Positions 1 through 55,208 of a DNA stretch of 64,000 nucleotides are shown here, one piece after another. The position numbers and the translations under genes were made by a program. Origin of the DNA: Candidatus Shapirobacteria bacterium (GTDB lineage: Bacteria; Patescibacteriota; Microgenomatia; UBA12405); assembly GCA_028704635.1 (NCBI GenBank), contig JAQWFB010000002.1:128693-192692 (forward strand), written 5' to 3'. The notes beneath the pieces are model-generated. The model did no database searches. It was not told the origin of the DNA and worked only from the letters and a program-made list of their open reading frames with translations. Positions within the stretch are counted from its first letter, which is position 1. Every line of letters begins with the position of its first letter.

Positions 1-1094
1 TACCTCAACACACTCAATGGATCCAAATTCCCATTTGGACCTTTAATTTCAAAATGCAAATGAGTTCCAGTTGAACGACCAGTATTTCCCATTGTTCCAA
101 TTTTTTGTCCTTGTCTCACCACTTGTCCTGGTTGTACCACAATTGATCCAGTCACCATATGAGCATACAAAGTTGAATAACCATTACCATGATTAATCAC
201 CACATAATTACCATAACCACCACCATTCCATCCAGCACTCGTCACAGTTCCACCTTGTGCTGCCACGATTGGCGGATTACTATGATTAGCAATATCCACA
301 GCTCGATGATACCAATAATATTTTTGACTAATTGTTCCCGAAGTTGGCCACATAAAGTTACCCTCTCCTTTCACCCCTGCCACCGGTGCCACTGTTCTAG
401 CCGCATATCTAGTTGTATCCAAAACAGTTTCTTTAGGTTTAATTCCATCTGGAATAATCAATTCTTGTCCAGCACTCAACGCAAAAGTTTCATCATTACT
501 AAAAGTATTAAAAGGATAATCAATAATGTTTTGAGCATCGACTTGATAGGCCTTGGCAATACTATAAATAGTTTCTCCTCTTTTTACTTTATATCGAACT
601 CCAGTCACCGGTAAAATTTTTAAAATCTGTCCCACTTTAATCGAATCGACCGTTTTCAAACTGTTTTCCCACATAATTGTATCAATCGTCACTCCAAATT
701 TTAGAGCGATTGACGACACCGTATCTCCATTAGCCACCCGATATTCTGTTGTTTCTCCTTTTGGTAATTCTGAGACCAAAGTATCCGCTCCACTATTATC
801 CGCGGCCATAATTAAATAAGTACTTCCCTCTCCATTATTACTACTATTAATCAAGTTTTCCAATTGACTCGAAAAAACTATTGTTAAAAAAGATAAAATT
901 GCCATACTGGCTCCAATAAAAGTCTGAGAAAATCTACCCCTTTGTCTATACATTGTCTTAGAAGTTATGATTTTCAAAAACCCAGCCCAACCCAAAAAAG
1001 TTTTCCCAAATCCATTCAAAAATCTCCCCTGTGCTTTTAGGAATTCACTCCACAATTTAATTTCACTATTAATATTTTCTTTTAAGTCCGACAT
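1..1094 (-). CDS. LysM-domain M23 family peptidoglycan peptidase. The C-terminal end runs off the window; the ATG is at 1094..1092.
   Basis: The minus-strand translation gives MSDLKENINSEIKLW... and contains LysM-like segments (YKVKRGETIYSIAKAY) plus the M23 catalytic motifs HRAVDI and GNTGRSTGTHLHFEI. No stop was seen in this frame by manual translation, so the ORF continues past position 1. Confidence 0.75.
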   Translation of the reverse strand, partial: MSDLKENINSEIKLWSEFLKAQGRFLNGFGKTFLGWAGFLKIITSKTMYRQRGRFSQTFIGASMAILSFLTIVFSSQLENLINSSNNGEGSTYLIMAADNSGADTLVSELPKGETTEYRVANGDTVSSIALKFGVTIDTIMWENSLKTVDSIKVGQILKILPVTGVRYKVKRGETIYSIAKAYQVDAQNIIDYPFNTFSNDETFALSAGQELIIPDGIKPKETVLDTTRYAARTVAPVAGVKGEGNFMWPTSGTISQKYYWYHRAVDIANHSNPPIVAAQGGTVTSAGWNGGGYGNYVVINHGNGYSTLYAHMVTGSIVVQPGQVVRQGQKIGTMGNTGRSTGTHLHFEIKGPNGNLDPLSVLR

Positions 1095-5370: not shown

Positions 5371-6714
5371 TCAAGTTTTCAACTCAGACACATTCCTAAT
5401 TTCCACCAATTTCCTTCCTAAACTCTCCGCTTCCTTTTTCCTTTTTTCCAAATTCCTCACTTTTCTCACTTCCCCCAACAAACTCACCTCCCCCACCCAA
5501 ACCGGCAAAGTTTTTCTCCCCTCCTTGTCAAAGGAGGGGGTGGGGGTGGATTTATACGAACTCCATATTGCTACCAACACCGCCAAATCTGCTGCCGTCT
5601 CCTCAATTTTCACTCCACCCGTCACCGACAAAAACACATCATACTTATATAAAGGTACCCCTAAACTTTTTTGAGCAATCGCTATCATCAACTGTCCCCG
5701 ATTATAATCAATCCCCGAAAAAATCCTTTTTGGCATCGGTGCAAAACTTTCCACCACCAAAGCCTGAATTTCCAATATCATTGGTCGAGTCCCCTCCATC
5801 ACCACCGTCACTGCACTCCCAATTTTATTTTCACCATTTTCAATTAAATTAATTTCTTCCGATTTAATTTCTCGAAGTCCTTTTTCTTCCATTTTAAAAA
5901 CTCCCACCTCATCTGTCGGACCAAACCGATTTTTACTAGTTCGAAGAATTCTCAAATCGCCATTTTTTTCTCCCTCAAAATACAACACCGTGTCCACCAT
6001 GTGTTCCAACAATTTTGGTCCAGCAATATCCCCGTCTTTCGTCACGTGTCCCACAATAAAAATTGCCATCCCTTTTTTCTTTGCCATTTGTATTAATCGA
6101 AAAGTCGATTCTTTAATTTGACTCACCGACCCTATTACTCCCGTCGCATTTTCACAATTCATGACCTGAATCGAGTCCACCACTGCTATTTTGTATAACT
6201 TTTGTGTTCGATCCAAAAACTCCTCTAATTCATCAATCGAATTTGTGCCTAAAACATCGAAGTTATTAGCATTTAAACCTAACCTTTTTACTCTTAACCC
6301 AATTTGCTCTGCCGATTCCTCCCCAGCCACATACAATCCCCCTATCTTTCCAATTAATTGTGTTAATAAAGTGCTCTTTCCAATCCCTGGTTCACCCGCA
6401 AACAGTACCGCCGACCCCTGAACAATTCCTTTACCCAAAACTCTATCAAATTCCCCTATAGTAGTTGAAAACACACTGTTATTATTTACTGGTTTTAACA
6501 AATTTTCATTATCCATTTTCCCTAAATTTCTCACTTCCAATTTCTCTCCCAATACTCTTTTTCTTTTACTTGATAAACTTGACGAACTTGAAAAACTTTT
6601 AACTTCTTTAAGTGAATTCCACTCTCCACAACCACTACACTGCCCCGCCCATTTTCCAAATTCATTTCCACAATTACTACACACAAAAACAGTCTCTTTA
6701 TTTTTCATTACCAA
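5371..6714 (-). CDS. radA: DNA repair protein RadA/Sms
   Basis: Shows an N-terminal C4 zinc ribbon (CSNCGNEFGKWAGQCSGCGEW), Walker A GEPGIGKSTLL, the RadA-specific KNRFG motif and a Lon-like C-terminal domain. It also contains in-frame repeat insertions (5516-5555 and 6568-6608). Confidence 0.9.
   Translation of the reverse strand: MVMKNKETVFVCSNCGNEFGKWAGQCSGCGEWNSLKEVKSFSSSSSLSSKRKRVLGEKLEVRNLGKMDNENLLKPVNNNSVFSTTIGEFDRVLGKGIVQGSAVLFAGEPGIGKSTLLTQLIGKIGGLYVAGEESAEQIGLRVKRLGLNANNFDVLGTNSIDELEEFLDRTQKLYKIAVVDSIQVMNCENATGVIGSVSQIKESTFRLIQMAKKKGMAIFIVGHVTKDGDIAGPKLLEHMVDTVLYFEGEKNGDLRILRTSKNRFGPTDEVGVFKMEEKGLREIKSEEINLIENGENKIGSAVTVVMEGTRPMILEIQALVVESFAPMPKRIFSGIDYNRGQLMIAIAQKSLGVPLYKYDVFLSVTGGVKIEETAADLAVLVAIWSSYKSTPTPSFDKEGRKTLPVWVGEVSLLGEVRKVRNLEKRKKEAESLGRKLVEIRNVSELKT
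5516..5555. repeat. Palindromic element inside radA, in frame (encodes TPTPSFDKEGRK)
   Basis: CTCCCCTCCTTGTCAAAGGAGGGGGTGGGGGTGGATTTAT. Confidence 0.75.
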
Positions 6715-26336: not shown

Positions 26337-26406
26337 TCCCTCTTTGACTATCACTCCCTTTTCAAGGGAGGGAAATCCCGCATCTGCGGGATGGGTGGGT
26401 TTTATA
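26337..26406. repeat. Palindromic element(s) in the 5' region of the 26344 ORF (encode PFSREGNPASAGWVGF)
   Basis: CCCTCTTTGACTATCACTCCCTTTTCAAGGGAGGGA + AATCCCGCATCTGCGGGAT + GGGTGGGTTTTATAG. Confidence 0.8.
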
Positions 26407-32360: not shown

Positions 32361-32400
32361 TCTCCCTTGTCAAAGGGAGATTTAGAGGGATTGGTTTTTA
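32361..32400. repeat. Palindromic element (short form), intergenic
   Basis: TCTCCCTTGTCAAAGGGAGA + TTTAGAGGGATTGGTTTTTA. Confidence 0.7.
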
Positions 32401-35400
32401 TTTTCCCAACTCCACTCCCATCCTAATATCCTTATTCAATTTCTGATTAAACAATAATTTTCCCCCCACCATACTCGCCTGTGGTTCTACTTGTAATGGT
32501 TGCCAATCTCTTGGAAAAGATACCAACGTCACTAATCCAGTATCTCCAAATCCAGATTGTTTCTGGACATAGCTTATATAAGAAAATTTATCTTTACCTG
32601 TCAAATTATTTGCACTAGAATATTTTATTTCCACTGTTTCTTTACTCAAAATTGGTACTGCCACCAAAAACCCCACTTCTTTTTTTCCATTAATTTCCTT
32701 GATTCTAATTTCATCAGCTGTATAAATTTTTCTTGAATTAGTCTTATCATCAATCACACTAATTTGCGATAAATTAACATCAATTGGTAAATAAATTCTT
32801 AAATAATTTTTATATTCGCCACCCGGAAAATCATTACTTTTAGCCATATTTTCATAATTAACCTTCAATGTCCTCTCCACTAAACTTTCATTAATATCTA
32901 CTACCTGTTCCATACTTCTAGATAAAAAATAATTTGTTTTATTCACCCCAAAATTAGAATCCACTACAAATAAATAATCTGAAAAACAATTCTCTTTTGT
33001 ACATTTTCCTTGATACATTGTTCCATCCCATCCTAAATCAGCCGCCAATTTAGCTATTTTACCATTATTAAAAGCCAATTGGATTTCATTTTTTTCCAAT
33101 AAATCCACTAAAGAAGAAACTAATTCTAATTGTTGTTTTGCTTTTAATCCCTTTATTTCTTCAAACATCTGACTTCCTAAAGTTCCTAAAAAACTCGCCT
33201 TCTGGGTCGATCCCGGAAAAAATTTACTTTCCGAATAATATTCCGCTTGTTCATATAAATTATCCTTAGTAATTTTTTCTTTAAAATCGGTCACATTAAT
33301 TTCTCCAATCACCCCTACAATTGCTTTCGCCACTGCCAAATTAATTCCAATCACCCCATCTACTTTTTTATTAATTTCTTGACTCAAAAACCATTGAATA
33401 TCTGCTGAAGCCTTTACAAAATCCGGATTCCAATTAGCATCTCTCATAAACCAGTTTGCTTCTCCCAAATAATTTTTTATTTCTATTGGCGGTTCCACAT
33501 GTCCTTTTAACTGACCATCAGCTTCATAAACATCTTTCACTTCAAAATTCAAAAGTTTTCCATTTTGAAAACTCAAAATTGCATAACTTCCAATAAATCC
33601 TCCTGTTGCTCGCAATTCCGCTTCATTTTGAAGTAACACTAAATATTCCCTCTTTCTTCCATCTAAACCCAACATTTCTGGCAAAATTTTCATTCCTTTC
33701 GACACTAAATTCAATTTTTCTTTTATTTCCTTTAAACCTTGGGCTTCTTTTTGCAAAGATATTCTCCATTTTGCCGGCATCCAGCTATAATCACCATTCA
33801 GTCTTGCTAAAACCAAACCCAACTCATTATCAAAATTAATTAAATATTCCTCTTCTTTACTTAACTCGTCAGAAAAATTTATTTCTCTTTCTTTAAAAAT
33901 TGCCTGGCTTATTAAATCCGCACTTTGACTAATTACAATCGCATCTTTTTCTAAATTTAAAACATCTTCCCCTATTTTAAGTAACGTTTGATAATTTCTA
34001 ACTATTTTAAATTTATTCAACCCCCAATCATCAATTTGCTGATCAATATCTTTGATCCTAATTAAATTTTTATCCGCCAAAATTTCTACCTGCTTATATT
34101 TTTTCGCTTCAATTAAAGTTACATTTTCTTTAATATTATTACAAGCCAAAACTGTTAATATCGTCCATTTTACAGGCAATATTAATAACAAAACTACTAA
34201 AAATAAAACCCACCACTTCAATTTGGCCGAAATTTTCAAAACTGGCATTTTTCTTTTCGGTTTTACTTCCACTTCTTTTTTAATCCCTCCATTTTCAAGG
34301 GAGGGAAATTCCGCTACAGCGGAATGGGTGGGTTTTATTATTTCATCTTCAAAACTATCGTCAAATTCCTCAATAATTTTTTTTGAATTCTCCCTTTCTT
34401 TAAGGGGAGATGTCTCCGCAATAGCGGAGACAGAGGGGTTTTGAATTGACTTTACTTTCTCAACCTCCAACCCCATCTTTTTTTGCTTATAAAAACTTTC
34501 TATCTCTTCCATCGGCTCCTCGTTCTTAATCTTAACTTCTTCTTGTTCATCTTCCACTACCACTTCCATCTTTCTTTTATTAACTTCCTTTTTAATCGGT
34601 TCCGACTCTTTTTTTATAGCCTCCCCTGTTTCAGCCAAAGGCTGATCGGCCTCTGGTCGAAAGGGAGGTTTGGAGGGTTTTTTAGGTTTTCTACTTTCTT
34701 CATCAGCCCTCGAAAAAAAATATTGCAAAGTTTCTGTTATTCCACCTTTAAAATCACTTTTTGGCTCCCATCGTAATTTTCTTACTGACTCCCTTAGTCT
34801 TTCCTCATCGATTTTTTCAATTTCAATCTCCTTTTGCATCACTTTATACCTTGTCATTTTTGCCTCATCTATCAACACTTTTGCCACTTCCTCACTATTT
34901 GTTTCCTCCCCTAAAATCAAAAATTTCTCCTTCTCTGTTCCCGATAAAAAACTCGCTCTTAAAATTGCTTCAACCAAATCTTCGATTGCTAAAATTCTAA
35001 ATTTACTTTTTAAACTTGGTAACACCAAATTTTTATTAACTACCGCCAATTTTATTGCCTCTGCTAAAAAATTATTTTCATCCATTCCTGGACCATAAAC
35101 TCCCTCTGCCTCCACCATTCTCCAATTTAAATTTAAATCATCTAAATCATCTTTTAAAAATTCCGCTCTCTCTCTATCGTTCACACAAACTAAAGTAATT
35201 TTTTCCCCTTTAAACTGATCTGTTTTCCACAGGTTTTTATCTCCCAAAAAATCAAAAACATAATTAAATTTACCACTAACTTCCGACAAATCCATCAATA
35301 ATTCAAAATTCTTTATATCACTTAATCCTGCCACATATTCCCCTACCCCGACCACATTTATATCTTTATTTGATAATTCTTCCGCCAACTTTTTAGCCGC

Positions 35401-35448
35401 AAATTGATCTATCCCAATAATTAAAGCGTAAGGCAATGCCGGATTCAT
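32398..35448 (-). CDS. Large membrane-anchored DUF4012-domain protein (cell-envelope associated). It has an N-terminal Rossmann-like domain and a long low-complexity linker.
   Basis: The C-terminal domain carries the DUF4012 signature LLQNEAELRATGGFIGSYA. There is a single TM helix around aa 410. The linker region contains four in-frame palindromic elements (34284-34684). Confidence 0.6.
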   Translation of the reverse strand: MNPALPYALIIGIDQFAAKKLAEELSNKDINVVGVGEYVAGLSDIKNFELLMDLSEVSGKFNYVFDFLGDKNLWKTDQFKGEKITLVCVNDRERAEFLKDDLDDLNLNWRMVEAEGVYGPGMDENNFLAEAIKLAVVNKNLVLPSLKSKFRILAIEDLVEAILRASFLSGTEKEKFLILGEETNSEEVAKVLIDEAKMTRYKVMQKEIEIEKIDEERLRESVRKLRWEPKSDFKGGITETLQYFFSRADEESRKPKKPSKPPFRPEADQPLAETGEAIKKESEPIKKEVNKRKMEVVVEDEQEEVKIKNEEPMEEIESFYKQKKMGLEVEKVKSIQNPSVSAIAETSPLKERENSKKIIEEFDDSFEDEIIKPTHSAVAEFPSLENGGIKKEVEVKPKRKMPVLKISAKLKWWVLFLVVLLLILPVKWTILTVLACNNIKENVTLIEAKKYKQVEILADKNLIRIKDIDQQIDDWGLNKFKIVRNYQTLLKIGEDVLNLEKDAIVISQSADLISQAIFKEREINFSDELSKEEEYLINFDNELGLVLARLNGDYSWMPAKWRISLQKEAQGLKEIKEKLNLVSKGMKILPEMLGLDGRKREYLVLLQNEAELRATGGFIGSYAILSFQNGKLLNFEVKDVYEADGQLKGHVEPPIEIKNYLGEANWFMRDANWNPDFVKASADIQWFLSQEINKKVDGVIGINLAVAKAIVGVIGEINVTDFKEKITKDNLYEQAEYYSESKFFPGSTQKASFLGTLGSQMFEEIKGLKAKQQLELVSSLVDLLEKNEIQLAFNNGKIAKLAADLGWDGTMYQGKCTKENCFSDYLFVVDSNFGVNKTNYFLSRSMEQVVDINESLVERTLKVNYENMAKSNDFPGGEYKNYLRIYLPIDVNLSQISVIDDKTNSRKIYTADEIRIKEINGKKEVGFLVAVPILSKETVEIKYSSANNLTGKDKFSYISYVQKQSGFGDTGLVTLVSFPRDWQPLQVEPQASMVGGKLLFNQKLNKDIRMGVELGK
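34284..34338. repeat. Palindromic element inside the DUF4012 gene (encodes KPTHSAVAEFPSLENGG)
   Basis: TCCCTCCATTTTCAAGGGAGGGA + AATTCCGCTACAGCGGAAT + GGGTGGGTTTTAT. Confidence 0.8.
34389..34444. repeat. Palindromic element inside the DUF4012 gene (encodes QNPSVSAIAETSPLKE)
   Basis: TCTCCCTTTCTTTAAGGGGAGATG + TCTCCGCAATAGCGGAGA + CAGAGGGGTTTTG. Confidence 0.8.
34618..34684. repeat. Palindromic element, long variant, inside the DUF4012 gene (encodes KPSKPPFRPEADQPLAETGEA)
   Basis: CCTCCCCTGTTTCAGCCAAAGGCTGATCGGCCTCTGGTCGAAAGGGAGG + TTTGGAGGGTTTTTT. Related copy at 55144-55208. Confidence 0.8.
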
Positions 35449-35481
35449 ACCCTTATTTTAAACTAAATCCATTCAAAAAAA

Positions 35482-35530
35482 GCCTCCCTGTCAAGGGAGG
35501 TGTCGAACAAAGTGAGACGGAGGGTTTAAA
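35482..35530. repeat. Palindromic element, intergenic
   Basis: GCCTCCCTGTCAAGGGAGGTG + TCGAACAAAGTGAGA + CGGAGGGTTTAAAT. Confidence 0.8.
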
Positions 35531-35652
35531 TTTCAAAATTCCTTGCGGTTATATTTCGGCAATTATGCGGTTATTACCTTTAAAATATGTTCTGATTTTT
35601 ATTATTTATACCTCTGAAACGTGAAAAAACGTCATAACCCAATTAAAAACAA

Positions 35653-35700
35653 TCACCCTGTTAAGGGAGATGTCTCGTAGCTGCGGGACAGAGGGTTTGA
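35653..35700. repeat. Palindromic element, intergenic
   Basis: TCACCCTGTTAAGGGAGATG + TCTCGTAGCTGCGGGA + CAGAGGGTTTGAAC. Confidence 0.8.
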
Positions 35701-35925
35701 ACCTTAAAAAGAAAAACTAACCAAGATGGGTGAAGTTAAAAACGTCCGAACCAGTTCCAAATGGCTAAAATTAAAATTCAAAATCTGTACTGATTTTAAG
35801 TAGGGGAATATATCAAAAATTATTATTTTTATAATAAAATTTTGAAGTTGCTATTTTTTCGTGCTTTGAACACGCCAGTATTCACGCAAAGAAAAAATAC
35901 GTAACGAAAAATTTAAAATAAAAAA

Positions 35926-37143
35926 TTAAAGAGACCTTCTTTTCAACGCTAAAATCGTCAACACACACGCCACCGCTTCTGATAAACCCGTCACCCAAGC
36001 CGCTCCTACAATTCCGAATCTCGGAATCACTAATAAATTACCAGTAAAATTGACTACTAAAGTTATCAACCCTAAAATCAGAATTTGTTTTTGTCCACCT
36101 TTAGCAATCAAAGTAAAACCAAATAGGTGATTAATATAAGAGAAAAAGAGGGGAATTAAAAGAATTCTTAAAACTACTACTGATGATTCATAACCATTTC
36201 CCGCTAATATTTTAATCATTAATGGCGCCAACCAATAAGCGAGGGGAATTATTACCACCAATGATCCTAATACAATCCAAGTTGACCATTTAAATAAACT
36301 TCTTTTATTCTCTGATTTACCCGAAAAAACTGGAAAAATACTATTCACAAAATAATAAGCCGGTTGCACCATATTAGAATAAATTTTATAAGCCAATCCA
36401 TAGAAAGCTACTTCTTTAACTCCAATAAATTTATCAATCATTAATGAATCAATTGCTCTGTCATATCCAGTAAATATCAACATATAAACACCCATTGGCC
36501 ATGATTCTTTCAAAAAATTTAAAACAAATTTTTTATTTAAAATTTCTAATTTAAACCCACTCAAAACTTTTTTGAGCAATTTCCAACCAATACTTAAACT
36601 TAAAATCCTAGCTATTAAATAAACCCCAAACACCCACATTAAACTAATTGAATCGTGCCAAACCAATAAAACTATTAAAAATAGTAATGGGAAAATAATA
36701 TCAATCAATACTTTTAAATCCATTCTCAATTCTGTCTGAAAAATTATTTCCAAACTTCCAGCCACCGATGTAAACCAAATCATCATTAAAGCCACTAAAA
36801 CTTCACCTTTAATTGATACAAAACCACCCCAACTAAAAATTAAAATTATTCCCAAAATAAAAGCTACTAATGTCGTCAATAATCTTGCCCAAGTTACCTG
36901 CATAAATAATTGATTCCTTTCCTTACTATCCTTTCCCGAAGCTTCTTTTACTCCTATCACTTTTGTTCCAAAATCCGATATTGAATCCAACAGTAATAGC
37001 ACTGATGTTACCAAAATATAACTACCATAAACATCAGCTCCCAATTTCCTCGTCAATAAACCAGTCGTCACTAAACTAATTAAAACCGTAATTCCTTTAG
37101 CCACAATCTGCACCCAGGTATTTAACAGCGACTTTTTCAACAT
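35926..37143 (-). CDS. Polysaccharide biosynthesis protein / Wzx-like flippase (multi-TM)
   Basis: 405-aa polytopic protein with a PST-family-like N-terminus LLTRKLGADVYGSY and about 12 TM helices. Confidence 0.65.
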   Translation of the reverse strand: MLKKSLLNTWVQIVAKGITVLISLVTTGLLTRKLGADVYGSYILVTSVLLLLDSISDFGTKVIGVKEASGKDSKERNQLFMQVTWARLLTTLVAFILGIILIFSWGGFVSIKGEVLVALMMIWFTSVAGSLEIIFQTELRMDLKVLIDIIFPLLFLIVLLVWHDSISLMWVFGVYLIARILSLSIGWKLLKKVLSGFKLEILNKKFVLNFLKESWPMGVYMLIFTGYDRAIDSLMIDKFIGVKEVAFYGLAYKIYSNMVQPAYYFVNSIFPVFSGKSENKRSLFKWSTWIVLGSLVVIIPLAYWLAPLMIKILAGNGYESSVVVLRILLIPLFFSYINHLFGFTLIAKGGQKQILILGLITLVVNFTGNLLVIPRFGIVGAAWVTGLSEAVACVLTILALKRRSL

Positions 37144-37176
37144 TACCTATTTTATCTTAAAAAACAAAAGAAAAAG

Positions 37177-37223
37177 CCGCCCTGTCAAGGGAGGTGCCCC
37201 ACAAAGCGGGGCGGAGGGTTTAA
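37177..37223. repeat. Palindromic element, intergenic (between the flippase and the ligase-like gene)
   Basis: CGCCCTGTCAAGGGAGGTG + CCCCACAAAGCGGGG + CGGAGGGTTTAAAC. Confidence 0.8.
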
Positions 37224-38458
37224 ACCAACCCCAATACTAATACTAACAACCAAACGTTTTGTGGTAAGGTCAACCAATAATGATCAACCATTCCACTTAT
37301 AATCACTATTCCTAAAATTATTTTAAAAATCCAATTTATTTTTTTTCTAGAAAAATTTTCACTAAAAAACAAAAACATTAAAGATAACCCCAATATTCCA
37401 ATCTCACTCCAAGCCAATATTAAAACATTATGAACCGGTTGTAACCAAAAAATTCCATTATTTTTCTGAAACTCGGGTAATCTCACTAAAAAATTACCCA
37501 AACCTACTCCAAATAAAGATGATTCTTTTATCATTTTTAATCCAGCTACATTTAATTGAATTCTTTTTCCAATTCCATCAGAATCCCATCCGCCTAAAAA
37601 ATCAGACACTTGATATTCCATATTTACCAATCTCAATCCAAAAATTATCACTCCCAAAACCAATAATATTAAACCCACAATATTAACCTTATTTTTTATA
37701 TTTTTTAATAAAAACCAAAAAATTAAACCCAAAGTCAAAATCCAAATTGTTCTACTCCCCGAAACCATTATTCCCAAAAATCCAAACCAAAAAACCATCC
37801 ACCACCAAGTCTTATTTATTTTCTCTCTTAACCACCACCATAATAATAAACTCACTAATAAAAATCCTGCCAAACTATTTGGGTGAGAAAAAGTTCCATA
37901 AGCTCTAATTAAACCTTTTCCAAAAACTGACATTTGGGCAATTCCAATTGTATTAAAACTAAAACTTCTTTCCCCTAACCAATAAAAAATTCCATTTAAA
38001 CTTCCACTTTTAGCCATTTGGGCCATCGCCAATAAACTCTCTAAAATGATCCAACAGGGGATAATTTTTATCAAATTTTCCTTAACTAATATTTTATTTT
38101 TTCTAAAATAAAAAAACGTTATCAATAATTGAACCACCCTTAACCATTTATAAACAGCCACCCACGGATTCACCGCCATCAAAATATTTATCCCCACAAA
38201 CACCGCTATTAAAAAATATTTAAATTTAAAAATTTTAGAAAGTCGCCCTGTCAAGGGAGATGTCCGCAGGACAGAGGGTTTAATCCAATTAAAAATCAAA
38301 ACTACCCAAACCAAATCTAATAAATACAAAGTAGGGGATAAATAATCAATTCTAATTCCCATTAAATAACTCCACTCTGGCCAAAAATGTTTACCTAATT
38401 GGGTCGGAATTAAAAGCAAAAATAAAAATAACCACACAACCCAATATAACACAATCAA
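37220..38458 (-). CDS. O-antigen ligase-like (Wzy_C) membrane protein
   Basis: Polytopic protein with a Wzy_C-like loop motif GTFSHPNSLAGFLLVS. Contains an in-frame palindromic element (38243-38283). Confidence 0.5.
   Translation of the reverse strand: MIVLYWVVWLFLFLLLIPTQLGKHFWPEWSYLMGIRIDYLSPTLYLLDLVWVVLIFNWIKPSVLRTSPLTGRLSKIFKFKYFLIAVFVGINILMAVNPWVAVYKWLRVVQLLITFFYFRKNKILVKENLIKIIPCWIILESLLAMAQMAKSGSLNGIFYWLGERSFSFNTIGIAQMSVFGKGLIRAYGTFSHPNSLAGFLLVSLLLWWWLREKINKTWWWMVFWFGFLGIMVSGSRTIWILTLGLIFWFLLKNIKNKVNIVGLILLVLGVIIFGLRLVNMEYQVSDFLGGWDSDGIGKRIQLNVAGLKMIKESSLFGVGLGNFLVRLPEFQKNNGIFWLQPVHNVLILAWSEIGILGLSLMFLFFSENFSRKKINWIFKIILGIVIISGMVDHYWLTLPQNVWLLVLVLGLV
38243..38283. repeat. Palindromic element inside the O-antigen-ligase-like gene (encodes KPSVLRTSPLTGRLS)
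   Basis: CGCCCTGTCAAGGGAGATG + TCCGCAGGAC + AGAGGGTTTAATC. Confidence 0.8.
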
Positions 38459-38463
38459 GACTT

Positions 38464-38511
38464 CGCCCCTGTTAAGGGGAGATGTCCCGCAAACGGGACA
38501 GAGGGGTTTAA
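38464..38511. repeat. Palindromic element at or just upstream of the start of the ligase-like gene
   Basis: CGCCCCTGTTAAGGGGAGATG + TCCCGCAAACGGGA + CAGAGGGGTTTAATTC. Confidence 0.8.
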
Positions 38512-38516
38512 TTCCT

Positions 38517-38984
38517 TTAGGCCTTCTTTATTACGATGTGTCTCTCTTCACCTTCACCCTCAGATTCACTCTCTATTCCTTCAATTTCTGCTAATACCAT
38601 ATGGCAAATTCTCCTTTCATAAGAGCTCATACTTGCCATTGCCATTGGATTACCAGTTTCTAATACTTTTTCTGCTAAAGACTTAACCATATTCTCTAAT
38701 CTTACTTTTTGTTCTCCTCGATAATTATTTACATCCAAAAGCACTCTAATTCCTTCACTAATTTGAGATCTAATAATCAAAGATAAAACAAATTGAATTG
38801 AAGCTAAATTTCGACCTCTAAAACCAATTAATCCCGCTGGATTTTTAACCGTTATTCCCACTAACACTTGATTTTCTTCTCCATCCATATCTTCCACAAA
38901 GGCTTTTTCCACCTCAAAATTCATTTTTTCTAAAAGTTCACAAGTGAATTTTAATATTTCTTCGTTTCTTTTTTTATTATCCAT
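38517..38984 (-). CDS. jag: Jag/KhpB-like KH + R3H RNA-binding protein
   Basis: 155 aa with KH-like and R3H-like segments. It sits in the conserved position downstream of yidC. Confidence 0.7.
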   Translation of the reverse strand: MDNKKRNEEILKFTCELLEKMNFEVEKAFVEDMDGEENQVLVGITVKNPAGLIGFRGRNLASIQFVLSLIIRSQISEGIRVLLDVNNYRGEQKVRLENMVKSLAEKVLETGNPMAMASMSSYERRICHMVLAEIEGIESESEGEGEERHIVIKKA

Positions 38985-39019
38985 AGTCGCTATTTTAACA
39001 CGAAAATTTTAAAAAAATT

Positions 39020-39071
39020 GCTCCCTTGTCAAGGGGAGCTGTCCCGATTTATCGGGACTGAGGGGTTTTAT
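39020..39071. repeat. Palindromic element covering the last codons and stop of yidC
   Basis: GCTCCCTTGTCAAGGGGAGCTG + TCCCGATTTATCGGGA + CTGAGGGGTTTTATTT. Confidence 0.8.
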
Positions 39072-39846
39072 TTATTTTATCAACCACTAATTGTTGAACT
39101 ACCATAAAACCTGAGGTTATAAACCAATACAATAATAATCCCAATGAAAAACTCCAACCAATAAAAATTGTCATCAATGGCATAAAGTAAGTTGATTGAG
39201 TCCTCATCATCGCCATCATATCATCCTCTTTATCTTTAGTTGCATCAGCAATCGATTCGCTTACTTTTGGTGCCGGCATCATCAATTTAGCACTTAAATA
39301 TTGTAAAAACCCTGAACCAATCAAAAGTATTAATGGTAATATTAAACCCGAATCCATTCCTTGAGAAAATATCTTTGCTGGAGTCTGTACTAAATCAGAA
39401 CCAAAAAAACTCATATCAAATTTAAAATTTTGATCAATTCTAAAAGACTGAATTAAATTACTATTAATCTTTTCTAAAGGAACTTTCCCTTCAGAAAAAA
39501 GGCTCACCATATTAAAAGCATAGAAAAATAAAAGTAGCACCGCTATTTGAATAATCTGAGGCAAACAACCAGACATCGGGTTAACTCCTTCTTGTTTGTA
39601 AAGATCCATTTGGGCTTTAGCTAAAGCTTGTTTATCTTTTCCAAATTTCTCTTTTAGTTTATTTAGTTTTGGCTGTAACTCTCTTATTTTTTGGGCCGAT
39701 TTCAAACTTGGCATTACCAGTGGTAATAAAACTAATCTAATTATCACTGTCACTATAATTATGGCCAATCCAAAATTACCAATCATATAATAAACAGCAA
39801 ACAAGGCATTTACAAACGGGGCTAGAAATAAATTCATATCGTTCAT
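39049..39846 (-). CDS. yidC: Membrane protein insertase YidC/Oxa1 (short form)
   Basis: 265-aa polytopic protein following yidD. The last six codons and the stop lie inside a palindromic element. Confidence 0.85.
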   Translation of the reverse strand: MNDMNLFLAPFVNALFAVYYMIGNFGLAIIIVTVIIRLVLLPLVMPSLKSAQKIRELQPKLNKLKEKFGKDKQALAKAQMDLYKQEGVNPMSGCLPQIIQIAVLLLFFYAFNMVSLFSEGKVPLEKINSNLIQSFRIDQNFKFDMSFFGSDLVQTPAKIFSQGMDSGLILPLILLIGSGFLQYLSAKLMMPAPKVSESIADATKDKEDDMMAMMRTQSTYFMPLMTIFIGWSFSLGLLLYWFITSGFMVVQQLVVDKINKTPQSR

Positions 39847-40055
39847 TCTACCAAATCGACTCCACCTTTTGATAGGGGGTTACATTTTAAAATCCTTTTA
39901 AAACCTAAAACTAAACCCTTCATTACCCCATATTTTTTCACGGCCAAATAAGTATATTCCGAACAAGTCGGAGTAAACCGACAATGATTCCCAATTCCCA
40001 TTCCAGAAATATATTTCCTGTAAAACACCAGCATCTTTAAAACAATTTTTTTCAT
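39843..40055 (-). CDS. yidD: Membrane protein insertion efficiency factor YidD
   Basis: 70 aa with GNHCRFTPTCSEY, the YidD signature. Confidence 0.85.
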   Translation of the reverse strand: MKKIVLKMLVFYRKYISGMGIGNHCRFTPTCSEYTYLAVKKYGVMKGLVLGFKRILKCNPLSKGGVDLVE

Positions 40056-40381
40056 TTTATGAATTTTTCCACTTCCTTTTCAACTTCATCATACTTTTTA
40101 CCTAAAATTTCTTTCTTCATCAAAAAAATTATTCTAGTCCCATTTTCAAATCTTTCTAAATTTTCTCGCACCACTTCCGATAGAATTCTTCTAATTTTAT
40201 TTCTGTCCACCGCCCTTTTGGAAATTTTTTTTGATACTATAAACCCAAATTTTTTCTGGTCATCATTTTCTTTACAAGTCAAAAAACCAAAAAGAGGGGA
40301 GTATAAAATTCTCCCTTTATTTTTAATTTCTGTAAATTCTTTTTTTAACCTAATTCTATTTTCTCTTTTCAACACCACCAA
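40052..40381 (-). CDS. rnpA: RNase P protein component
   Basis: 109-aa basic protein with the KKISKRAVDRNKIRR motif, located between rpmH and yidD. Confidence 0.8.
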   Translation of the reverse strand: MVVLKRENRIRLKKEFTEIKNKGRILYSPLFGFLTCKENDDQKKFGFIVSKKISKRAVDRNKIRRILSEVVRENLERFENGTRIIFLMKKEILGKKYDEVEKEVEKFIK

Positions 40382-40392
40382 TTATACTAAAA

Positions 40393-40530
40393 TTAGCCAG
40401 TTATTTTCTTTCTACCCTTAGCTCTTCTTCTTTTAAGCACATTTCTACCATCATGATCCATCATTCTTTTTAAAAATCCATGAACTCGGGCATGTTTTTT
40501 TGCTTTTCGTTGTAAAGTCATTTTTGTCAT
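40393..40530 (-). CDS. rpmH: 50S ribosomal protein L34. It is 45 aa and is not in the ORF track because it falls below the size cut-off.
   Basis: Minus-strand translation gives MTKMTLQRKAKKHARVHGFLKRMMDHDGRNVLKRRRAKGRKKITG, which matches the L34 consensus (...RRRAKGRKRL). Confidence 0.85.
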   Translation of the reverse strand: MTKMTLQRKAKKHARVHGFLKRMMDHDGRNVLKRRRAKGRKKITG

Positions 40531-40565
40531 AGCTGCTATTTTAACATAAAATAATCACCAAAACA

Positions 40566-40607
40566 GCCTCCCTGTTAAGGGAGGTGCCCGCAGGGCGAAG
40601 GGTTTAA
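40566..40607. repeat. Palindromic element, intergenic (between rpmH and dnaA)
   Basis: CCTCCCTGTTAAGGGAGGTG + CCCGCAGGG + CGAAGGGTTTAATTT. Confidence 0.8.
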
Positions 40608-40619
40608 TTTGATATCTTT

Positions 40620-40680
40620 TCTTTTGTGGAAAACTCATCTAATATAAACATTACCCCAATCGATTTTTCCACAATTTCGA
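40620..40680 (+). promoter_or_regulatory. DnaA-box-like sites (TTTTCCACA, present twice) in the dnaA upstream region
   Basis: TGTGGAAAA at 40625-40633 (reverse orientation) and TTTTCCACA at 40665-40673. Each has one mismatch to TTATCCACA. Confidence 0.4.
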
Positions 40681-40738
40681 TTTTAAATTCCTGCCTATTT
40701 AACCGTTATTTTTTATGTTGTAAATTTTACAATCCATT

Positions 40739-42082: not shown

Positions 42083-42393
42083 TCCCAAAAAAGTTTTCCA
42101 CTTTCTACCACCACTTATCCACATTTTTATCCACAATCACTATTATCTTTTTCCCCCGAAGTTTACCCAAACTCAAAATCAAATTATAAGCTACAACTAC
42201 TCTTTTTTACCCAACATTCAATCATTTTTTATTTTCTAACACTCTAACTAATTCAATTAGAACACAACTTTCCATTATTTTTAAAACTACCCCACTTATC
42301 AACACTCTCTACTAATCATTACTACTATTTTTGATATTAAATATCTTTATTAACAACCTTTAAACCCAAATCATTTTTTGATAATATAAGTCA
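42083..42393 (+). promoter_or_regulatory. Putative oriC: AT-rich dnaA-dnaN spacer with two perfect DnaA boxes
   Basis: TTATCCACA occurs at 42115-42123 and at 42127-42135. The region is about 80% AT and contains further near-boxes (TTATCAACA at about 42293). Confidence 0.65.
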
Positions 42394-45981: not shown

Positions 45982-48570
45982 TTAAACAATCCCGTCTCCA
46001 AATAATTTATCATAATCCATTTTATTGTCTTCTTTTTTAATTTCTCCCATATTTTTTTGCCCTCCATTTTCAAGGGAGGGTGACCCCGCAGCTGCGGGGG
46101 CGGGTGGGTTTATTTCAAACACCGGCTGCGGTTTTCTCGCTAATTGAGGTGGCTGAGGTATTCGCTGTTCCTCAGTTTTAATAAAAATTGGTTTTTTTAT
46201 CTCATTTTGGTCAACCGCTACTTCTGGTCTTTTAAATAATACTGATTCAGTTTTCATTTCCGGTTTCACTTCCATCATTTCAATTTTCCTGTCAATAGAA
46301 TTATTTTGTGGCAACACTACTGGAGGTTTTTCATTAACTTCCACTGTTTTTAAATCCAAGACATCAACTTTAGGGGTAAAATTAACAGTTTTAATTTCTG
46401 TAGTTTTTAAAGGTTCCTCTTTATCAAATGGAACTAGTCCTACAGCTGTCGAGACAGAGGGGTTCTGAACTGGTTTTACTTCAATCGGCTTAATTTGAGG
46501 CTCCACTACCGGTTTAACTTGAACCGGAATTTTGTTTTCAATCTCTACCGTTTTTATTTCTGGAATATTAATTTTTGGTGCTACTTCAACTTTTTGCGGT
46601 TCAACAGGTTTATTTATTGGAGGTAATGTCGATGGAAATGTTTTGAAATCTTCCTTGTCTCGGACATAATCCGATCCGCCTGTGGCGGAAAAAGGAGATT
46701 TAGAGGGATTTTGAAATGGTTTCGTTTCTATTGGCTTAATTGGTGGCTTCATTCCATTATTTGGCTTTTGATCACTCAAAAAACTTTGCTTTTTTAAGAT
46801 ATCTTCCGGATTTGAAGTAATCAAATTATGTTCATCCACCGAAGCAATTATTTGAATTGCCACATGATTTTGACCAGCAAAAAAGATTCCTTCACCTTTA
46901 CTTGCTGATAATAATAATTGCTTTTCTCCATCACTCAAATAAAATACCTCACCAATTTGATCAATCGCCGCACTATGCTGTTTTAATAAAATTTGAATTG
47001 AGCTATTAGTCACTATTTCTTTACCATAAGCAGTCCTTAAAAAGTCATCCACGTCCTGAGTTATTGTTGTTACTCCCAAATAATATTTTCTTCCTCTTTT
47101 AACAATTCCTCTCAAAAATTCCGCCGAATCATCATGTTGCATTAAATACCAGGCTTCATCCACCACTAATATTCTTTTTTTCAATGTTTTTTTAACCATT
47201 GTCCAGATATAATCCAAAATAATTTGCATTGCCACTGGTCTTAATGCGTCCTCTAAGTTTCTAATTCCAAAAACCACAAATTTATTCGTTAAATTAACTG
47301 TTGTTTTTTGATTAAAAATCCCCGAAAACGACCCTTTAATATATTTTTCCAGTCTGGCTGCCAACCCTTTGGCCTTTTCATCCTCCATCCCAATCAAAGA
47401 TTTGTATAAATCTTCAATTAATGGTGGTTCTTTGTCTTGAGTTGCTGGATCAGGAGTAATCCCTTTCATTTTATAAGCATCCATCATTGCTCGATCCATA
47501 ATCGATTCTTCAATTGGATCCATCTCACCCAACATCACTTTTAATAATTTATGTAAAGATAAAATTTTAGTATTTAAACCATTTTCACCTTGTTCTTCAG
47601 CTAAAGTTAAATCAAACGGATTAATTTTAGAACCTTCACCATAACCGAAGGCAATATATTGACCGCCAGAATTATCACACAATTCCTTATATTCATTTTC
47701 TGGGTCAATTACAATAATATCTGTCCCCATCATTAATGATCGAAGAACTTCCAATTTAATCAAATAAGACTTACCAGCCCCAGCCATAGCAAAAACCACT
47801 GAGTTATAATTTGGCATTGAAAATCTATCAAAAATTACCAACGATCCATTATGCATATTAATTCCATACATTATTCCCTGATCATCCGATAAATCTGATG
47901 ACACAAAAGGGAAAGTAGTTGCCAAAGAAGTCGTATCCATATTTCGACTAATTGCCAATCTGTCTTGGCAAATCGGCAAAGTTGACACAAACCCATCTTC
48001 CATTTGCAACGTTGCCTTTTTACTTATAATCAACAATGCCCCCAAGGCTGCTTCTAAATTTTTATTCACTCTATCCAATTCCACCACTGAATCCGCTGTT
48101 ATTGTCACATAAAGTCCAAATTGAAAAAATCTTTCTTCACCTTTAACCAAATTAGCTTGTAAATTTAACGCATCCTCTAATTTTGCCTGTGTTGCCGGAT
48201 TAATCAATCGACCCCTTTGAATATCAGTGCTCAGCTCGGCTTCCATTTCTGTAATTTTTCGTCGAAGATCATCTAAAACTTCCTTTCCATCGGTTGGATA
48301 AATAAACATTGAAATATTTAAAGAAGAATCAAAATTAATCAACGATGATAGCCAATTAATTCCTACAAATCTTGGATATGCCGCCACAAATAAAGTTCGA
48401 TAATATTTATTATCAATTCTAATATGATTAAAATCCACTTCTAGAGCCGATGGGGCAATTATATCCTTAGTTGTTACCAACCCTTGAGTAAATTCTCTTT
48501 TATTAGGATCCACTATCGGTGTTGGTTCTGAATTATTTGCTGTTGTATTTTTTTTATTAAAAAATTTCAT
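45982..48570 (-). CDS. VirB4/TrbE-family type IV secretion ATPase with a roughly 260-aa proline-rich C-terminal extension
   Basis: Walker A (VVFAMAGAGKSYLIK), Walker B (RILVVDEAWYLMQ) and overall VirB4 architecture. The tail contains three in-frame palindromic elements. Confidence 0.8.
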   Translation of the reverse strand: MKFFNKKNTTANNSEPTPIVDPNKREFTQGLVTTKDIIAPSALEVDFNHIRIDNKYYRTLFVAAYPRFVGINWLSSLINFDSSLNISMFIYPTDGKEVLDDLRRKITEMEAELSTDIQRGRLINPATQAKLEDALNLQANLVKGEERFFQFGLYVTITADSVVELDRVNKNLEAALGALLIISKKATLQMEDGFVSTLPICQDRLAISRNMDTTSLATTFPFVSSDLSDDQGIMYGINMHNGSLVIFDRFSMPNYNSVVFAMAGAGKSYLIKLEVLRSLMMGTDIIVIDPENEYKELCDNSGGQYIAFGYGEGSKINPFDLTLAEEQGENGLNTKILSLHKLLKVMLGEMDPIEESIMDRAMMDAYKMKGITPDPATQDKEPPLIEDLYKSLIGMEDEKAKGLAARLEKYIKGSFSGIFNQKTTVNLTNKFVVFGIRNLEDALRPVAMQIILDYIWTMVKKTLKKRILVVDEAWYLMQHDDSAEFLRGIVKRGRKYYLGVTTITQDVDDFLRTAYGKEIVTNSSIQILLKQHSAAIDQIGEVFYLSDGEKQLLLSASKGEGIFFAGQNHVAIQIIASVDEHNLITSNPEDILKKQSFLSDQKPNNGMKPPIKPIETKPFQNPSKSPFSATGGSDYVRDKEDFKTFPSTLPPINKPVEPQKVEVAPKINIPEIKTVEIENKIPVQVKPVVEPQIKPIEVKPVQNPSVSTAVGLVPFDKEEPLKTTEIKTVNFTPKVDVLDLKTVEVNEKPPVVLPQNNSIDRKIEMMEVKPEMKTESVLFKRPEVAVDQNEIKKPIFIKTEEQRIPQPPQLARKPQPVFEINPPAPAAAGSPSLENGGQKNMGEIKKEDNKMDYDKLFGDGIV
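46059..46111. repeat. Palindromic element inside the virB4 tail (encodes PAPAAAGSPSLENGG)
   Basis: CCCTCCATTTTCAAGGGAGGGTG + ACCCCGCAGCTGCGGGGG + CGGGTGGGTTTATTTC. Confidence 0.8.
46438..46468. repeat. Partial palindromic element inside the virB4 tail (encodes VQNPSVSTAVGLV)
   Basis: TCCTACAGCTGTCGAGA + CAGAGGGGTTCTGAAC. Confidence 0.65.
46674..46722. repeat. Partial palindromic element inside the virB4 tail (encodes FQNPSKSPFSATGGSD)
   Basis: TCCGCCTGTGGCGGA + AAAAGGAGATTTAGAGGGATTTTGAAATGG. Confidence 0.65.
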
Positions 48571-54255: not shown

Positions 54256-55134
54256 ATGCCAGAACTTCCCGAAGTTGAGGTCGTCCGACTTTTTTTAGAC
54301 AACCATTTAATTGGTAAAACTATTTCTAATTTAGAGATTTTAAATAAAAAATCCTTCACTGGCGATCCAAAAAAAATAATTAATCAAAAAATCACCAAAA
54401 CTTCTCGTATTGGCAAACAGCTCTCAATTCATTTGAAAAATAATTTAATTCTTCTTTTTCATCTCAAAATGACCGGCCAAATTATATACAGTCCCCTTTT
54501 TTCAAGGGGGATGCCCGCAGGGCAGGGGGTTTCAACATTTGGTCATCCCACTCCCAAAGAAGATAAATCAACTTTACCCAATAAATCCACTCGTCTCGTT
54601 TTTACTTTTTCCAATGGTTCTAAATTATTTTTTAACGATCAACGCAAATTTGGCTGGGTTAAACTTTTTACCTCTAACGAACTCGATGACTCTCAAAAAA
54701 ATCTTGGTCTTGATATTTTAAGTTCCAAATTTACCTCTAAATATTTTTATCAGCAAATTCAGAATACTACTCGTCCTATTAAAGTAGTTTTACTCGATCA
54801 ATCTAAATTTGCCGGCATTGGCAATATTTATGCCAACGATGCCCTCTTTTTATCCAAAATTAATCCACAAACACCTTCAAATAAAATTAGTTTTAAAAAA
54901 GCTTTGCTTCTACACCATTTTTTAATCCAAATTATGACCGAGTCTATTAAAGCCGGTGGTTCCACTGCCAAAGATAATAAATATATTCACCCCGATGGTT
55001 CCAGTGGTCAACATCAATTTAATTTTCAAGTTTACCAACGAGCTGGCGAACCTTGTTTAGTTTGTCAAACTCCAATTAAACGAATCACTCTCGCCGGCCG
55101 CGGCACCTTCTATTGCCCCAAATGTCAAAAATAA
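54256..55134 (+). CDS. mutM: Formamidopyrimidine-DNA glycosylase (Fpg/MutM)
   Basis: Starts MPELPEVE with the catalytic Pro2. Shows the H2TH region and a C-terminal zinc finger (CLVCQTPIKRITLAGRGTFYCPKCQ). An in-frame palindromic element lies at 54491-54534. Confidence 0.9.
   Translation: MPELPEVEVVRLFLDNHLIGKTISNLEILNKKSFTGDPKKIINQKITKTSRIGKQLSIHLKNNLILLFHLKMTGQIIYSPLFSRGMPAGQGVSTFGHPTPKEDKSTLPNKSTRLVFTFSNGSKLFFNDQRKFGWVKLFTSNELDDSQKNLGLDILSSKFTSKYFYQQIQNTTRPIKVVLLDQSKFAGIGNIYANDALFLSKINPQTPSNKISFKKALLLHHFLIQIMTESIKAGGSTAKDNKYIHPDGSSGQHQFNFQVYQRAGEPCLVCQTPIKRITLAGRGTFYCPKCQK
54491..54534. repeat. Palindromic element inside mutM, in frame (encodes SPLFSRGMPAGQGVSTF)
   Basis: GTCCCCTTTTTTCAAGGGGGATG + CCCGCAGGG + CAGGGGGTTTCAAC. 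Confidence 0.85.
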
Positions 55135-55143
55135 AAAGACTAC

Positions 55144-55208
55144 CTGTCTCAGCCAAAGGCTGATTGGCCTCTGGCCAAAAAGGAGGGGTTAGGGGTGGAT
55201 TGGTTTTT
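55144..55208. repeat. Palindromic element, long variant, intergenic (between mutM and iscS)
   Basis: CCTGTCTCAGCCAAAGGCTGATTGGCCTCTGGCCAAAAAGGAGG + GGTTAGGGGTGGATTGGTTTTTT. Confidence 0.8.

Follow-up and report, generated by a model that had tools for sequence, protein, structure and literature searches.

The 64,000-nucleotide stretch of a Candidatus Shapirobacteria genome analysed here (hereafter, the window) carries on its minus strand, at 32398..35448, a gene for a 1016-aa DUF4012 protein, and three segments of the linker of this protein are encoded by copies of a short two-hairpin DNA repeat. We suppose, with a probability of about 0.7, that these segments are copies of a small selfish hairpin repeat, similar to the repetitive extragenic palindromes (REP) and the Rickettsia palindromic elements (RPE), in a tolerant disordered linker. 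The core of this reading, a palindromic element in a tolerant linker, had been put forward in the first-pass annotation of the sequence, and every test run supported it.

The window has a GC content of 34% and holds a family of GC-rich elements built of two hairpins. Read on the strand of the gene, the unit consists of the tract 5'-AAACCC(T/A)C(C) (hereafter, C1), a variable perfect hairpin A, the hairpin B CCTCCC-TTGACA-GGGAGG-3' and a variable 3' flank; its size is about 46 nt (46-47 nt when measured between its sharp boundaries) and rises to about 70 nt in the long variant. Hairpin B has the subfamily variants CTCCCC/GGGGAG, TCTCCC-CTTAAAAAA-GGGAGA and CCCTCC-CTTGAAAAT-GGAGGG. As for hairpin A, a perfect stem of at least 5 bp is present in 45 of the 68 parsed copies and beats shuffled sequences at p<=0.05 in 41 of the 68, while its arms are represented by 41 distinct sequences among 56. 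Stop codons are absent from two of the three frames on the strand of the gene and usually from all three on the other strand, so that a copy landing in a permissive segment adds, if its frame is tolerated, 14-23 residues to the protein, typically of the form KPSV..SPLDRE or KPTHSAxAE.PSLENGG. A covariance model from the MAFFT alignment of the copies (A1) was dropped, as the copies differ in loop length, which puts the 5' arm of hairpin B out of register, and in the same alignment RNAalifold paired the wrong tracts; nhmmer and an explicit hairpin parser were used instead. The nhmmer profile made from the 17 window copies of this alignment gave 17 matches at E<1e-3 and 23 plus-strand matches at E<10 in the 64-kb window, and with weaker and variant copies counted the total reaches about 25, i.e., about 0.4 per kb.

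For the copies inside the DUF4012 gene a leave-out profile, made from the window copies minus the two inside the host gene, was searched over the window. All three linker copies lie on the minus strand, and we number them from the N-terminus of the protein. Copy 1 (34613..34691, aa 255-277, PKKPSKPPFRPEADQPLAETGEA) is the long variant, in which only AAA separates the C1 tract from the 5' arm and extra hairpins are situated within the loop of hairpin B; it was recognized from its fold and from its nhmmer matches to 55142-55198 (E=7e-8) and 46646-46714 (E=4e-4), and it also matches a copy in locus L059 of another Shapirobacteria genome. Of these, 55142..55198 (minus strand) is an intergenic paralogue and shares 77% identity with it over 66 nt. 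Copy 2 (34389..34444, aa 335-354, IQNPSVSAIAETSPLKEREN) is a standard unit with a 9-bp hairpin A (p<0.002 against shuffles), found by the leave-out profile at 34391-34441 with E=1.7e-6. Copy 3 (34282..34338, aa 371-389, IKPTHSAVAEFPSLENGGI), a standard unit of the CCCACCC subfamily, was found at 34283-34338 with E=1e-5 and is 83% identical to 26341-26405 and 69% to 46049-46113. Its hairpin A contains a compensatory pair, TTCCGC/GCGGAA in the window versus TTCTGC/GCAGAA in the syntenic loci L003 and L007, with the hairpin kept. All three copies are in frame, translated and placed wholly within the disordered stretch, where the predicted element-coded peptide segments include KPTHSAVAEFPSLENGG and QNPSVSAIAETSPLK. 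The in-frame copies that the first-pass annotation had placed at 34284, 34389 and 34618, including the long one, were thus recovered by the leave-out E-values, the matches of the long variant and the translations. A fourth copy proposed at 34052-34444 was not: this interval is only an antisense open reading frame (ORF) running across two copies, and the leave-out profile gave no match in 33800-35480 beyond the two standard copies even at E<10.

The protein itself agrees with its first-pass description as a DUF4012 protein with copies in the linker: the product of 32398..35448 is 100% identical to the NCBI entry 'DUF4012 domain-containing protein [Candidatus Shapirobacteria bacterium]', and Pfam places DUF4012 at aa 599-734. 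The predicted order of a Rossmann-like domain, a linker and a transmembrane helix was also borne out by an AlphaFold model built on an alignment of 55 homologues (A2). The N-terminal domain (aa 6-253; 34690..35433, minus strand) shows alternation of beta and alpha elements at a predicted local distance difference test score (pLDDT) of 70-90; by Foldseek its fold resembles those of the extended short-chain dehydrogenase/reductase (SDR) family of sugar-nucleotide epimerases and dehydratases (E=1.5e-9, target TM 0.66), the top matches being UDP-xylose synthase and UDP-glucose 4-epimerase (GalE). It is followed by the disordered linker (aa 254-406; 34231..34689, minus strand), with a pLDDT of 23-32, below 50 throughout, and zero secondary structure over the whole region covering the three copies. 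The linker had been described as acidic and of low complexity; it is not simply acidic but K/E-rich with mixed charge (36 acidic and 34 basic residues of 171), and its length and sequence differ among orthologues. A hydrophobic transmembrane helix (aa 408-447; 34108..34227, minus strand) and a confidently modelled C-terminal body complete the protein.

This long fused architecture is real, because more than 100 homologues of about 950-1050 aa align with the host protein end to end at identities down to 44%. The opposite explanation, that two genes were fused by an assembly or frame error across a repeat-rich spacer, or that the segments resemble the repeat by chance owing to low complexity, could refer to a Met before the transmembrane helix, conserved in the closest orthologues. 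This Met is not conserved in the more distant ones, for which reason an internal start splitting the gene in two was rejected, while the fusion of about 1000 aa is kept in over 100 independently assembled homologues, down to 37-44% identity, and the leave-out E-values lie between 1e-5 and 1e-6; an artefact can practically be dismissed. Three plus-strand ORFs opposite this region (34052..34444, 34483..34776, 34670..35098) come from mechanical ORF listing and are not genes. Their translations are of low complexity and rich in F, L and S, their peptides also occur in the N-terminal extension of the ORF 26344.., and the end of the first of them is copies 2 and 3 read antisense. Their interpretation as by-products of the repeats is only partly valid; probably they owe as much to the coding of the K/E-rich linker, whose purine-rich codons would leave few stop codons on the opposite strand.

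Comparison with orthologues points to the repeat segments as additions to a spacer that was already there. In an alignment of 46 orthologous proteins the anchors EVVVEE, IESFYKQKK and EEFDD are conserved, and the element peptides between them vary (KPSVPINRDTSLDRE, KPFPNPSLDRAGHE, NPSPPKAESPLDEGE, KPTHSAIAELPSLENGG, PSFAPAELQNGG). When conservation of the linker in element-free genomes was tested, the element segments proved not to be conserved: the orthologues P0003 and P0007, at 82-85% identity, are devoid of them, and others have different variants at the same sites. The peptide motifs are present in the linker of 19 of the 36 orthologues at 53% identity or more, and almost never elsewhere in the protein; some 70 more distant orthologues retain a linker, about 140 aa long, in which no element peptide motifs were found. 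At the DNA level, 12 of 12 hidden Markov model (HMM) matches within 35 full-length metagenomic orthologous genes fall in the fifth of the gene coding for the linker (about 0.21^12 by chance), and the element-bearing genes among them include lineages only 41-44% identical. Judging by these alignments, the linker pre-exists as a variable spacer, the element segments being additions specific to particular lineages.

The window was further compared at the DNA level with seven syntenic loci (L001-L007). Copy 1 is common to the window and L001, is replaced by standard variants in L003 and L005, leaves a remnant in L004 and is absent from L002 and L006. Copy 2 is a net insertion of 51 nt (17 codons) relative to L001, L002 and L006, with other variants at this place in L003 and L007. 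Copy 3 is shared with L003 and L007, has a variant without hairpin A in L001 and is absent from L002 and L004-L006. The same holds for the Wzy-like membrane protein considered below: one site in its loop (W1) is filled in five and empty in two orthologues, and another (W2) is empty in the window and L006 and occupied by four different variants across the other five. Within the linker of L003 two copies (10775-10820 and 10994-11039) are identical at 44 of 46 nt, and in L007 two copies (4537-4583 and 4702-4748) differ at one position; in both pairs the similarity begins with AAACC and ends with GGGAG(G/A), and the flanks are unrelated. As each lineage has its own variant and the host genes of L003 and L007 are only 85% identical in nucleotides, these duplications or homogenisations are younger than the split of the two lineages. 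The number of copies per syntenic 20 kb is about 13 in the window, 8 in L003 and in L128 and 1 in L004 and in L006, i.e., relatives with 82-87% identity show a more than 10-fold difference, and lineages of 40% GC or more have about none. Together, these sequence comparisons show a fast turnover, in which copies arise, give way to other variants and decay through internal deletions.

The family is not confined to this gene. About half of the window copies are intergenic and about 45% lie inside genes, with at least 11 in-frame copies in 7 window genes: DUF4012 (three), VirB4-like (three), Wzy, GH18, RadA, Fpg and SpoIID-like. The three related copies in the C-terminal tail of the VirB4/TraG-like ATPase (46040..46716, minus strand; Pfam TraG P-loop/AAA_10) are located at 46060-46113, at about 46447-46481 (partial) and at 46646-46714 (long type). 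According to the first-pass annotation the linker peptides QNPSVSAIAE and EFPSLENGG reappear in this tail; the tail peptides (QNPSVSTAVG, GSPSLENGG and FQNPSKSPFSATGG) are indeed related to them, though not identical. Further in-frame copies are found in a loop of the Wzy_C (O-antigen-ligase-like) membrane protein (38242..38283, minus strand, IKPSVLRTSPLTGRL; Pfam, peptides and profile), in RadA, where a short form (5517..5539, minus strand, PSFDKEGR) makes an insertion of 8 residues relative to the solved RadA structure 5lkm, and in Fpg/MutM (54491..54535, HMM E=7e-9), with a segment of about 20 extra residues relative to MutM 1l1t. The Fpg gene lies on the plus strand, and the copy, which keeps its chromosomal orientation, is read there on the other strand (SPLFSRGMPAGQGVS). 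The GH18 copy follows the N-terminal helix, the SpoIID-like one comes just after the signal peptide, and other genomes have read-through copies in LigA and in another VirB4-like protein. Copies accumulate at tolerant sites, namely linkers, tails, loops and positions just past signal peptides. In several cases a stop codon lies inside the element (39016-39071, 17568-17617, 15098-15135), for example the TAA in an ATAAAT loop of hairpin A, and the last few residues of those proteins are consequently element-encoded.

Since the peptides recur in proteins related to the envelope or secretion (DUF4012, VirB4-like, Wzy, GH18, SpoIID-like), one might regard PSLDRE, PSLENGG and KPSV.. as selected protein motifs, e.g., recognition or processing sites. 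This explanation is effectively refuted: about half of the copies are intergenic, the same DNA read in different frames and strands yields such unrelated peptides as SPLDRE, SPLTGRL and that of Fpg, compensatory changes keep the DNA hairpins, and close orthologues do without the segments. The element-coded peptides themselves would have no required function.

The most peculiar property of the family is its orientation. All three linker copies and all 17 window matches at E<1e-3 have the same one, contrary to the initial claim that both orientations occur, and the G-rich tail of all window copies lies on the plus strand regardless of the strand of the gene. The GC skew of the plus strand is -0.25 to -0.45 over 1-60 kb, including the regions under plus-strand genes and across dnaA/dnaN, and reaches zero only in the AT-rich region of 60-64 kb. 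An origin at dnaA/dnaN (40739-43512) as the pivot of orientation was rejected, as the skew keeps its sign there. The genome collection was scanned with the pattern AAACCCN{8,38}CCCTTGACAGGG, which gives many chance matches in high-GC genomes, and the matches were used only after filtering by HMM and GC content; among the matches listed, from low-GC loci, the G-tail strand is the locally C-rich strand in 78 of 87, with both signs of the skew represented, whereas only 60 of the 87 agree with the strand of the gene. Metagenomes gave 80 loci (1.06 Mb, with a skew between +0.27 and +0.63), where 100 of 102 matches have one orientation, with 26% of the coding sequence on the opposite strand. The copies in opposite-strand genes (Fpg, SpoIID-like, LigA twice, VirB4-like) keep the chromosomal orientation with one exception (L096). 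The orientation is therefore locked to the G/C strand asymmetry of the chromosome and not to the direction of genes.

The skew of the window matches the strand disparity reported for related Microgenomates, a genome-wide G/C disparity with a monotonic cumulative skew, read as possibly unidirectional replication (PMC7143001). According to two studies (PMC5027513, PMC6006769), IS200/IS605 transposition targets the lagging-strand template, and replication-coupled orientation is a hallmark of single-strand transposition by HUH/Y1 enzymes. By analogy, we infer that the strand lock may be linked to transposition of the HUH/Y1 type. The copies would then have landed in, or have been copied into, the disordered linker, the family spreading when a single strand delimited by hairpins is copied at the fork, in the way known from the HUH/Y1 enzymes of IS200/IS605 and REP; alternatively, short-patch conversion between copies could account for the spread.

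Several observations weigh against a selfish element of this kind. Of the approximately 14 intergenic window copies, 10 adjoin the stop codon of a co-oriented gene upstream or overlap with it, and several copies make up the entire spacer. Their 3' flanks contain about 5.3 T per 10 nt versus 2.6 for the in-gene copies (by hand count), which have A-rich 3' flanks, and three copies (35483, 39021, 40567) of about 12 in the 26-41 kb region pass a terminator scan. A host function of the intergenic copies is thus possible. The corresponding explanation treats the copies as signals selected by the host, i.e., terminators, mRNA 3'-end stabilisers or processing sites, whose sequence is constrained by a recognising factor and whose coding copies are collateral; the hairpins kept despite sequence change and the presence of a Rho gene would suit it as well. 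At the same time, the terminator scan of 26-41 kb is not enriched (6 found versus 8.3 expected from shuffles), orthologous operons exist without a copy (the gap between the Wzy and flippase genes is 8-9 nt in L004-L007 versus about 76 nt with the element in the window), close relatives differ over 10-fold in the number of copies, divergent genes also have copies between them (26350, 40563), and the orientation follows the chromosome even in or near opposite-strand genes, where termination on the sense strand is impossible. We consider host-selected signals improbable as the origin of the family. As few copies pass a non-enriched scan, operons without copies exist and some copies are placed between divergent genes, we take terminator-like activity to be a possible exaptation and not the reason for the existence of the family. 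The in-gene copies do not have the downstream T-run common at intergenic copies and would not terminate transcription.

Other points against the same interpretation concern the way of spreading. A scan of 28 window proteins revealed no transposase and no RAYT-type gene; no pair of window copies exceeds about 87% identity, i.e., there is no sign of very recent activity here; and the loci that demonstrate the strand lock are partly syntenic, so their matches are not all independent events. Several 'empty' alleles retain the termini AAACC|GGAGGCTTT (coding for KPEAF), and L004 retains only the C1-loop-G arm, which indicates, as far as sequence goes, probable erosion by internal deletion. Filled alleles often replace a sequence of similar length rather than add to it, and microhomology with the K/E-coding target (AAA.. 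and ..GGAG) is often seen at the junctions. Because of the retained termini, replacement and microhomology, conversion or template switching fits as well as transposition. A spread that needs no transposase, by short-patch gene conversion or by microhomology-primed template switching, with the strand lock coming from asymmetric replication, would also agree with the lack of terminal inverted repeats (AAACC at one end is no inverted repeat of GGGAG at the other) and of target-site duplication, of which none was found in the flanks of the near-identical L003 and L007 copies or in the comparisons of filled and empty sites. One site may carry different variants in sister lineages and one genome the same variant at two sites, and the related genome Ch65 was reported to be without mobile-element genes (PMC7143001). 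Yet the unit has sharp boundaries (AAACC...GGGAG) and unrelated flanks, as is usual for a defined mobile unit, and conversion alone cannot make copies at new sites such as those in RadA, Fpg and LigA, and we regard a transposase-free spread as unlikely, if somewhat less so than an origin from host signals. In IS200/IS605-type elements a fixed target of four or five nucleotides precedes the left end; the 5' flanks of the copies compared here are (A/T)T-rich (ATT, GTT, TTC, AGC), and no fixed word is apparent in them.

Among the known systems, the selfish mobile repeat that we prefer comes closest to RPEs, described as selfish palindromes present in frame in many unrelated genes (Ogata et al. 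2000, Science 290:347; 2002, Genome Res 12:808; summarised in PMC10969869). RPEs, like our element, are dispersed palindromic repeats of a reduced genome with several subfamilies; a large part of their copies lie in frame in unrelated genes, housekeeping enzymes included, and add an extra peptide at permissive positions. In-frame insertion and read-through, characteristic of RPEs, are observed here for the at least 11 copies in 7 window genes, with orthologues devoid of the insert. The unit is 46-70 nt versus about 100-150 bp for RPEs (families RPE-1..10). The host phylum is different (Patescibacteria, or the candidate phyla radiation, CPR), the unit is modular, combining a conserved hairpin with a freely varying perfect one, and its orientation is almost absolutely strand-locked. 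To our knowledge, no such strand lock has been described for RPEs. Being about one third of their size, modular, strand-locked and from another phylum, the element was not filed as an RPE.

The REP/BIME/REPIN sequences associated with RAYT are likewise short GC-rich hairpins of high copy number, with structure conserved more than sequence and with neither terminal inverted repeats nor target-site duplication; they are thought to be mobilised as single-stranded hairpins and lie mostly between genes (PMC3116915, PMC3333891, PMC8266576). REPs are by definition extragenic and have a GTAG or CGTC head (PMC3733652), unlike the present element with about 45% of its window copies inside genes and the head AAACCC(T/A)C. 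A separate REP-like palindrome family headed by GTAG (TGTAGGGTACAGGCATGCCTGTACCCTAC) does exist in the window, at 4616-4649, 6922-6955 and 18570-18603, with 79-100% identity. Hairpin-defined ends, the lack of terminal inverted repeats and target-site duplication, and replication-biased orientation are shared with IS200/IS605 and their miniature derivatives, which transpose as single strands by 'peel and paste' at the replication fork (PMC5027513, PMC6006769); differences are that no TnpA was found among the 28 window proteins scanned and that the two hairpins are not a matched pair of left and right ends. SPRITE of pneumococcus, Correia of Neisseria and ERIC (examples in PMC10969869) are also small dispersed repeats at gene ends that resemble or act as rho-independent terminators, some of them intragenic, but they measure at least 100-150 bp and have terminal inverted repeats and usually target-site duplications. 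Neither of these two features, which define classical miniature inverted-repeat transposable elements, was found here. The uptake sequences of Pasteurellaceae (USS) and Neisseriaceae (DUS) have cores of 9-12 nt, no obligatory hairpin and about equal numbers of both orientations; they also occur within genes, in preferred frames and weakly constrained segments, and are often paired as terminators. Both they and the present element are short over-represented motifs found also inside genes, the latter being distinguished by its structure and strand lock; CPR are not known to have uptake specificity. Most likely, the element is of the RPE/REP-like kind already known, and its unexpected property is the near-absolute lock to strand asymmetry.

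A bolder proposal is that of an undescribed class of Patescibacteria elements, a 46-nt strand-locked unit copied as a folded single strand during asymmetric, possibly unidirectional replication, recognized by its triplex topology and seeding disordered peptides. We hold this proposal to be doubtful; if true, it would mean that a minimal genome has disordered segments continually seeded into its proteins, RadA, Fpg and LigA among them. The triplex part comes from the order of the unit (C-tract, variable hairpin, mirrored C-tract, loop, G-tract), in which C1 mirrors the 5' arm of hairpin B (CCCTCC..CCTCCC, CCCCTC..CTCCCC) and is not a direct repeat or a complement of this arm: 24 of 55 informative copies have the exact mirror upstream and 2 of 55 the direct repeat. 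C1 and the G arm thereby run in parallel, as they would in an intramolecular pyrimidine-purine-pyrimidine triplex; this is a geometric observation only. Against a triplex rule, the CCCACCC subfamily violates T·A-T pairing, and common ancestry of subfamilies could also give the mirror pattern. A Watson-Crick switch between C1 and the G arm was rejected as a general rule, as it fits the CCTCC core and fails for the CCCCTC/CTCCCC subfamily. Promoter activity (the TTGACA loop equals the -35 consensus) was rejected as well: 26-41 kb contains 62 predicted sigma-70 sites versus 54.9±8.1 in shuffles, so that there is no enrichment, and at a distance of 16-18 nt the loops lack a -10 partner. Rfam gave no match at the gathering threshold in the window and nothing at E<=1 in 34000-41000 except for one chance snoRNA match.

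Descriptions of CPR/Patescibacteria portray their genomes as streamlined, with hardly any mobile DNA, and no account of such elements in Patescibacteria was found in the searched library, to which this statement applies. Extrapolation from about 0.4 copies per kb suggests that a lineage would have hundreds of copies of this tiny structured repeat, by which intergenic spacers are rewritten and conserved enzymes and envelope proteins acquire additional peptides. It would be a second, independent case of the 'protein-coding palindrome' phenomenon of Rickettsia, again in a host-dependent organism with a reduced genome, and its strand lock links a repeat family to the unexplained G/C disparity of Microgenomates, providing a handle on how these genomes replicate. 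In practice, the copies inflate the variability of linkers, spawn spurious antisense ORFs and can mislead calls of orthology, domain boundaries and gene starts in CPR metagenome-assembled genomes (MAGs).

As for the surroundings of the host gene, a short-form copy (32361..32400, minus strand, profile E=0.046) adjoins its stop codon, and two intergenic copies (35480-35531 and 35651-35701, minus strand) lie just upstream; their occupancy varies among orthologues between conserved non-coding blocks, and 35483-35500 is terminator-like. These blocks (about 35535-35650 and 35705-35800, minus strand) are present in all seven syntenic loci, and one of them contains the direct repeat TAACCGCA..TAACCGCA. 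The blocks have no Rfam match; an operator, a leader or a small RNA are possible identities for them. Some MAGs with questionable labels also carry the element. The variant CCCCCC/GGGGGG, often in convergent pairs about 20 nt apart, is present in L016, L023, L039 and L086 ('uncultured Rhizobium sp.', 38-40% GC), and copies occur in L040, L085 and L113 ('Gammaproteobacteria', 34-36% GC), up to 7 of them in 7.9 kb in L085; the labels 'Rhizobium' and 'Gammaproteobacteria' look wrong because these MAGs have CPR-like GC content and skew.

Elsewhere in the window, the region where the skew crosses zero has 28% GC and contains AT-rich direct and inverted repeats (59362-59491, 62654-62717). The motif TGTTAAAATAGCnnCTATG at 38982-39000 and 40528-40546 (minus strand) looks like an extended -10 box with an ATG 7 nt downstream, which would leave the transcripts of rpmH and of one other gene leaderless or nearly so. 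The rRNA region (8314-14120) is interrupted: it contains, in this order, tRNA-Ile (14046-14120), two protein ORFs including GH18 (12093-13950), tRNA-Ala (11764-11838) and the 23S (8626-11590) and 5S (8314-8430) rRNA genes, and there is no 16S rRNA gene in the window. Finally, a cluster resembling a type IV secretion system (43604-50189) comprises the VirB4/TraG-like ATPase (45982-48570) together with a protein of the PrgI family (49278-50189) and with large membrane or secreted proteins that carry no annotation, and a T4SS_pilin gene is present in the syntenic L005.

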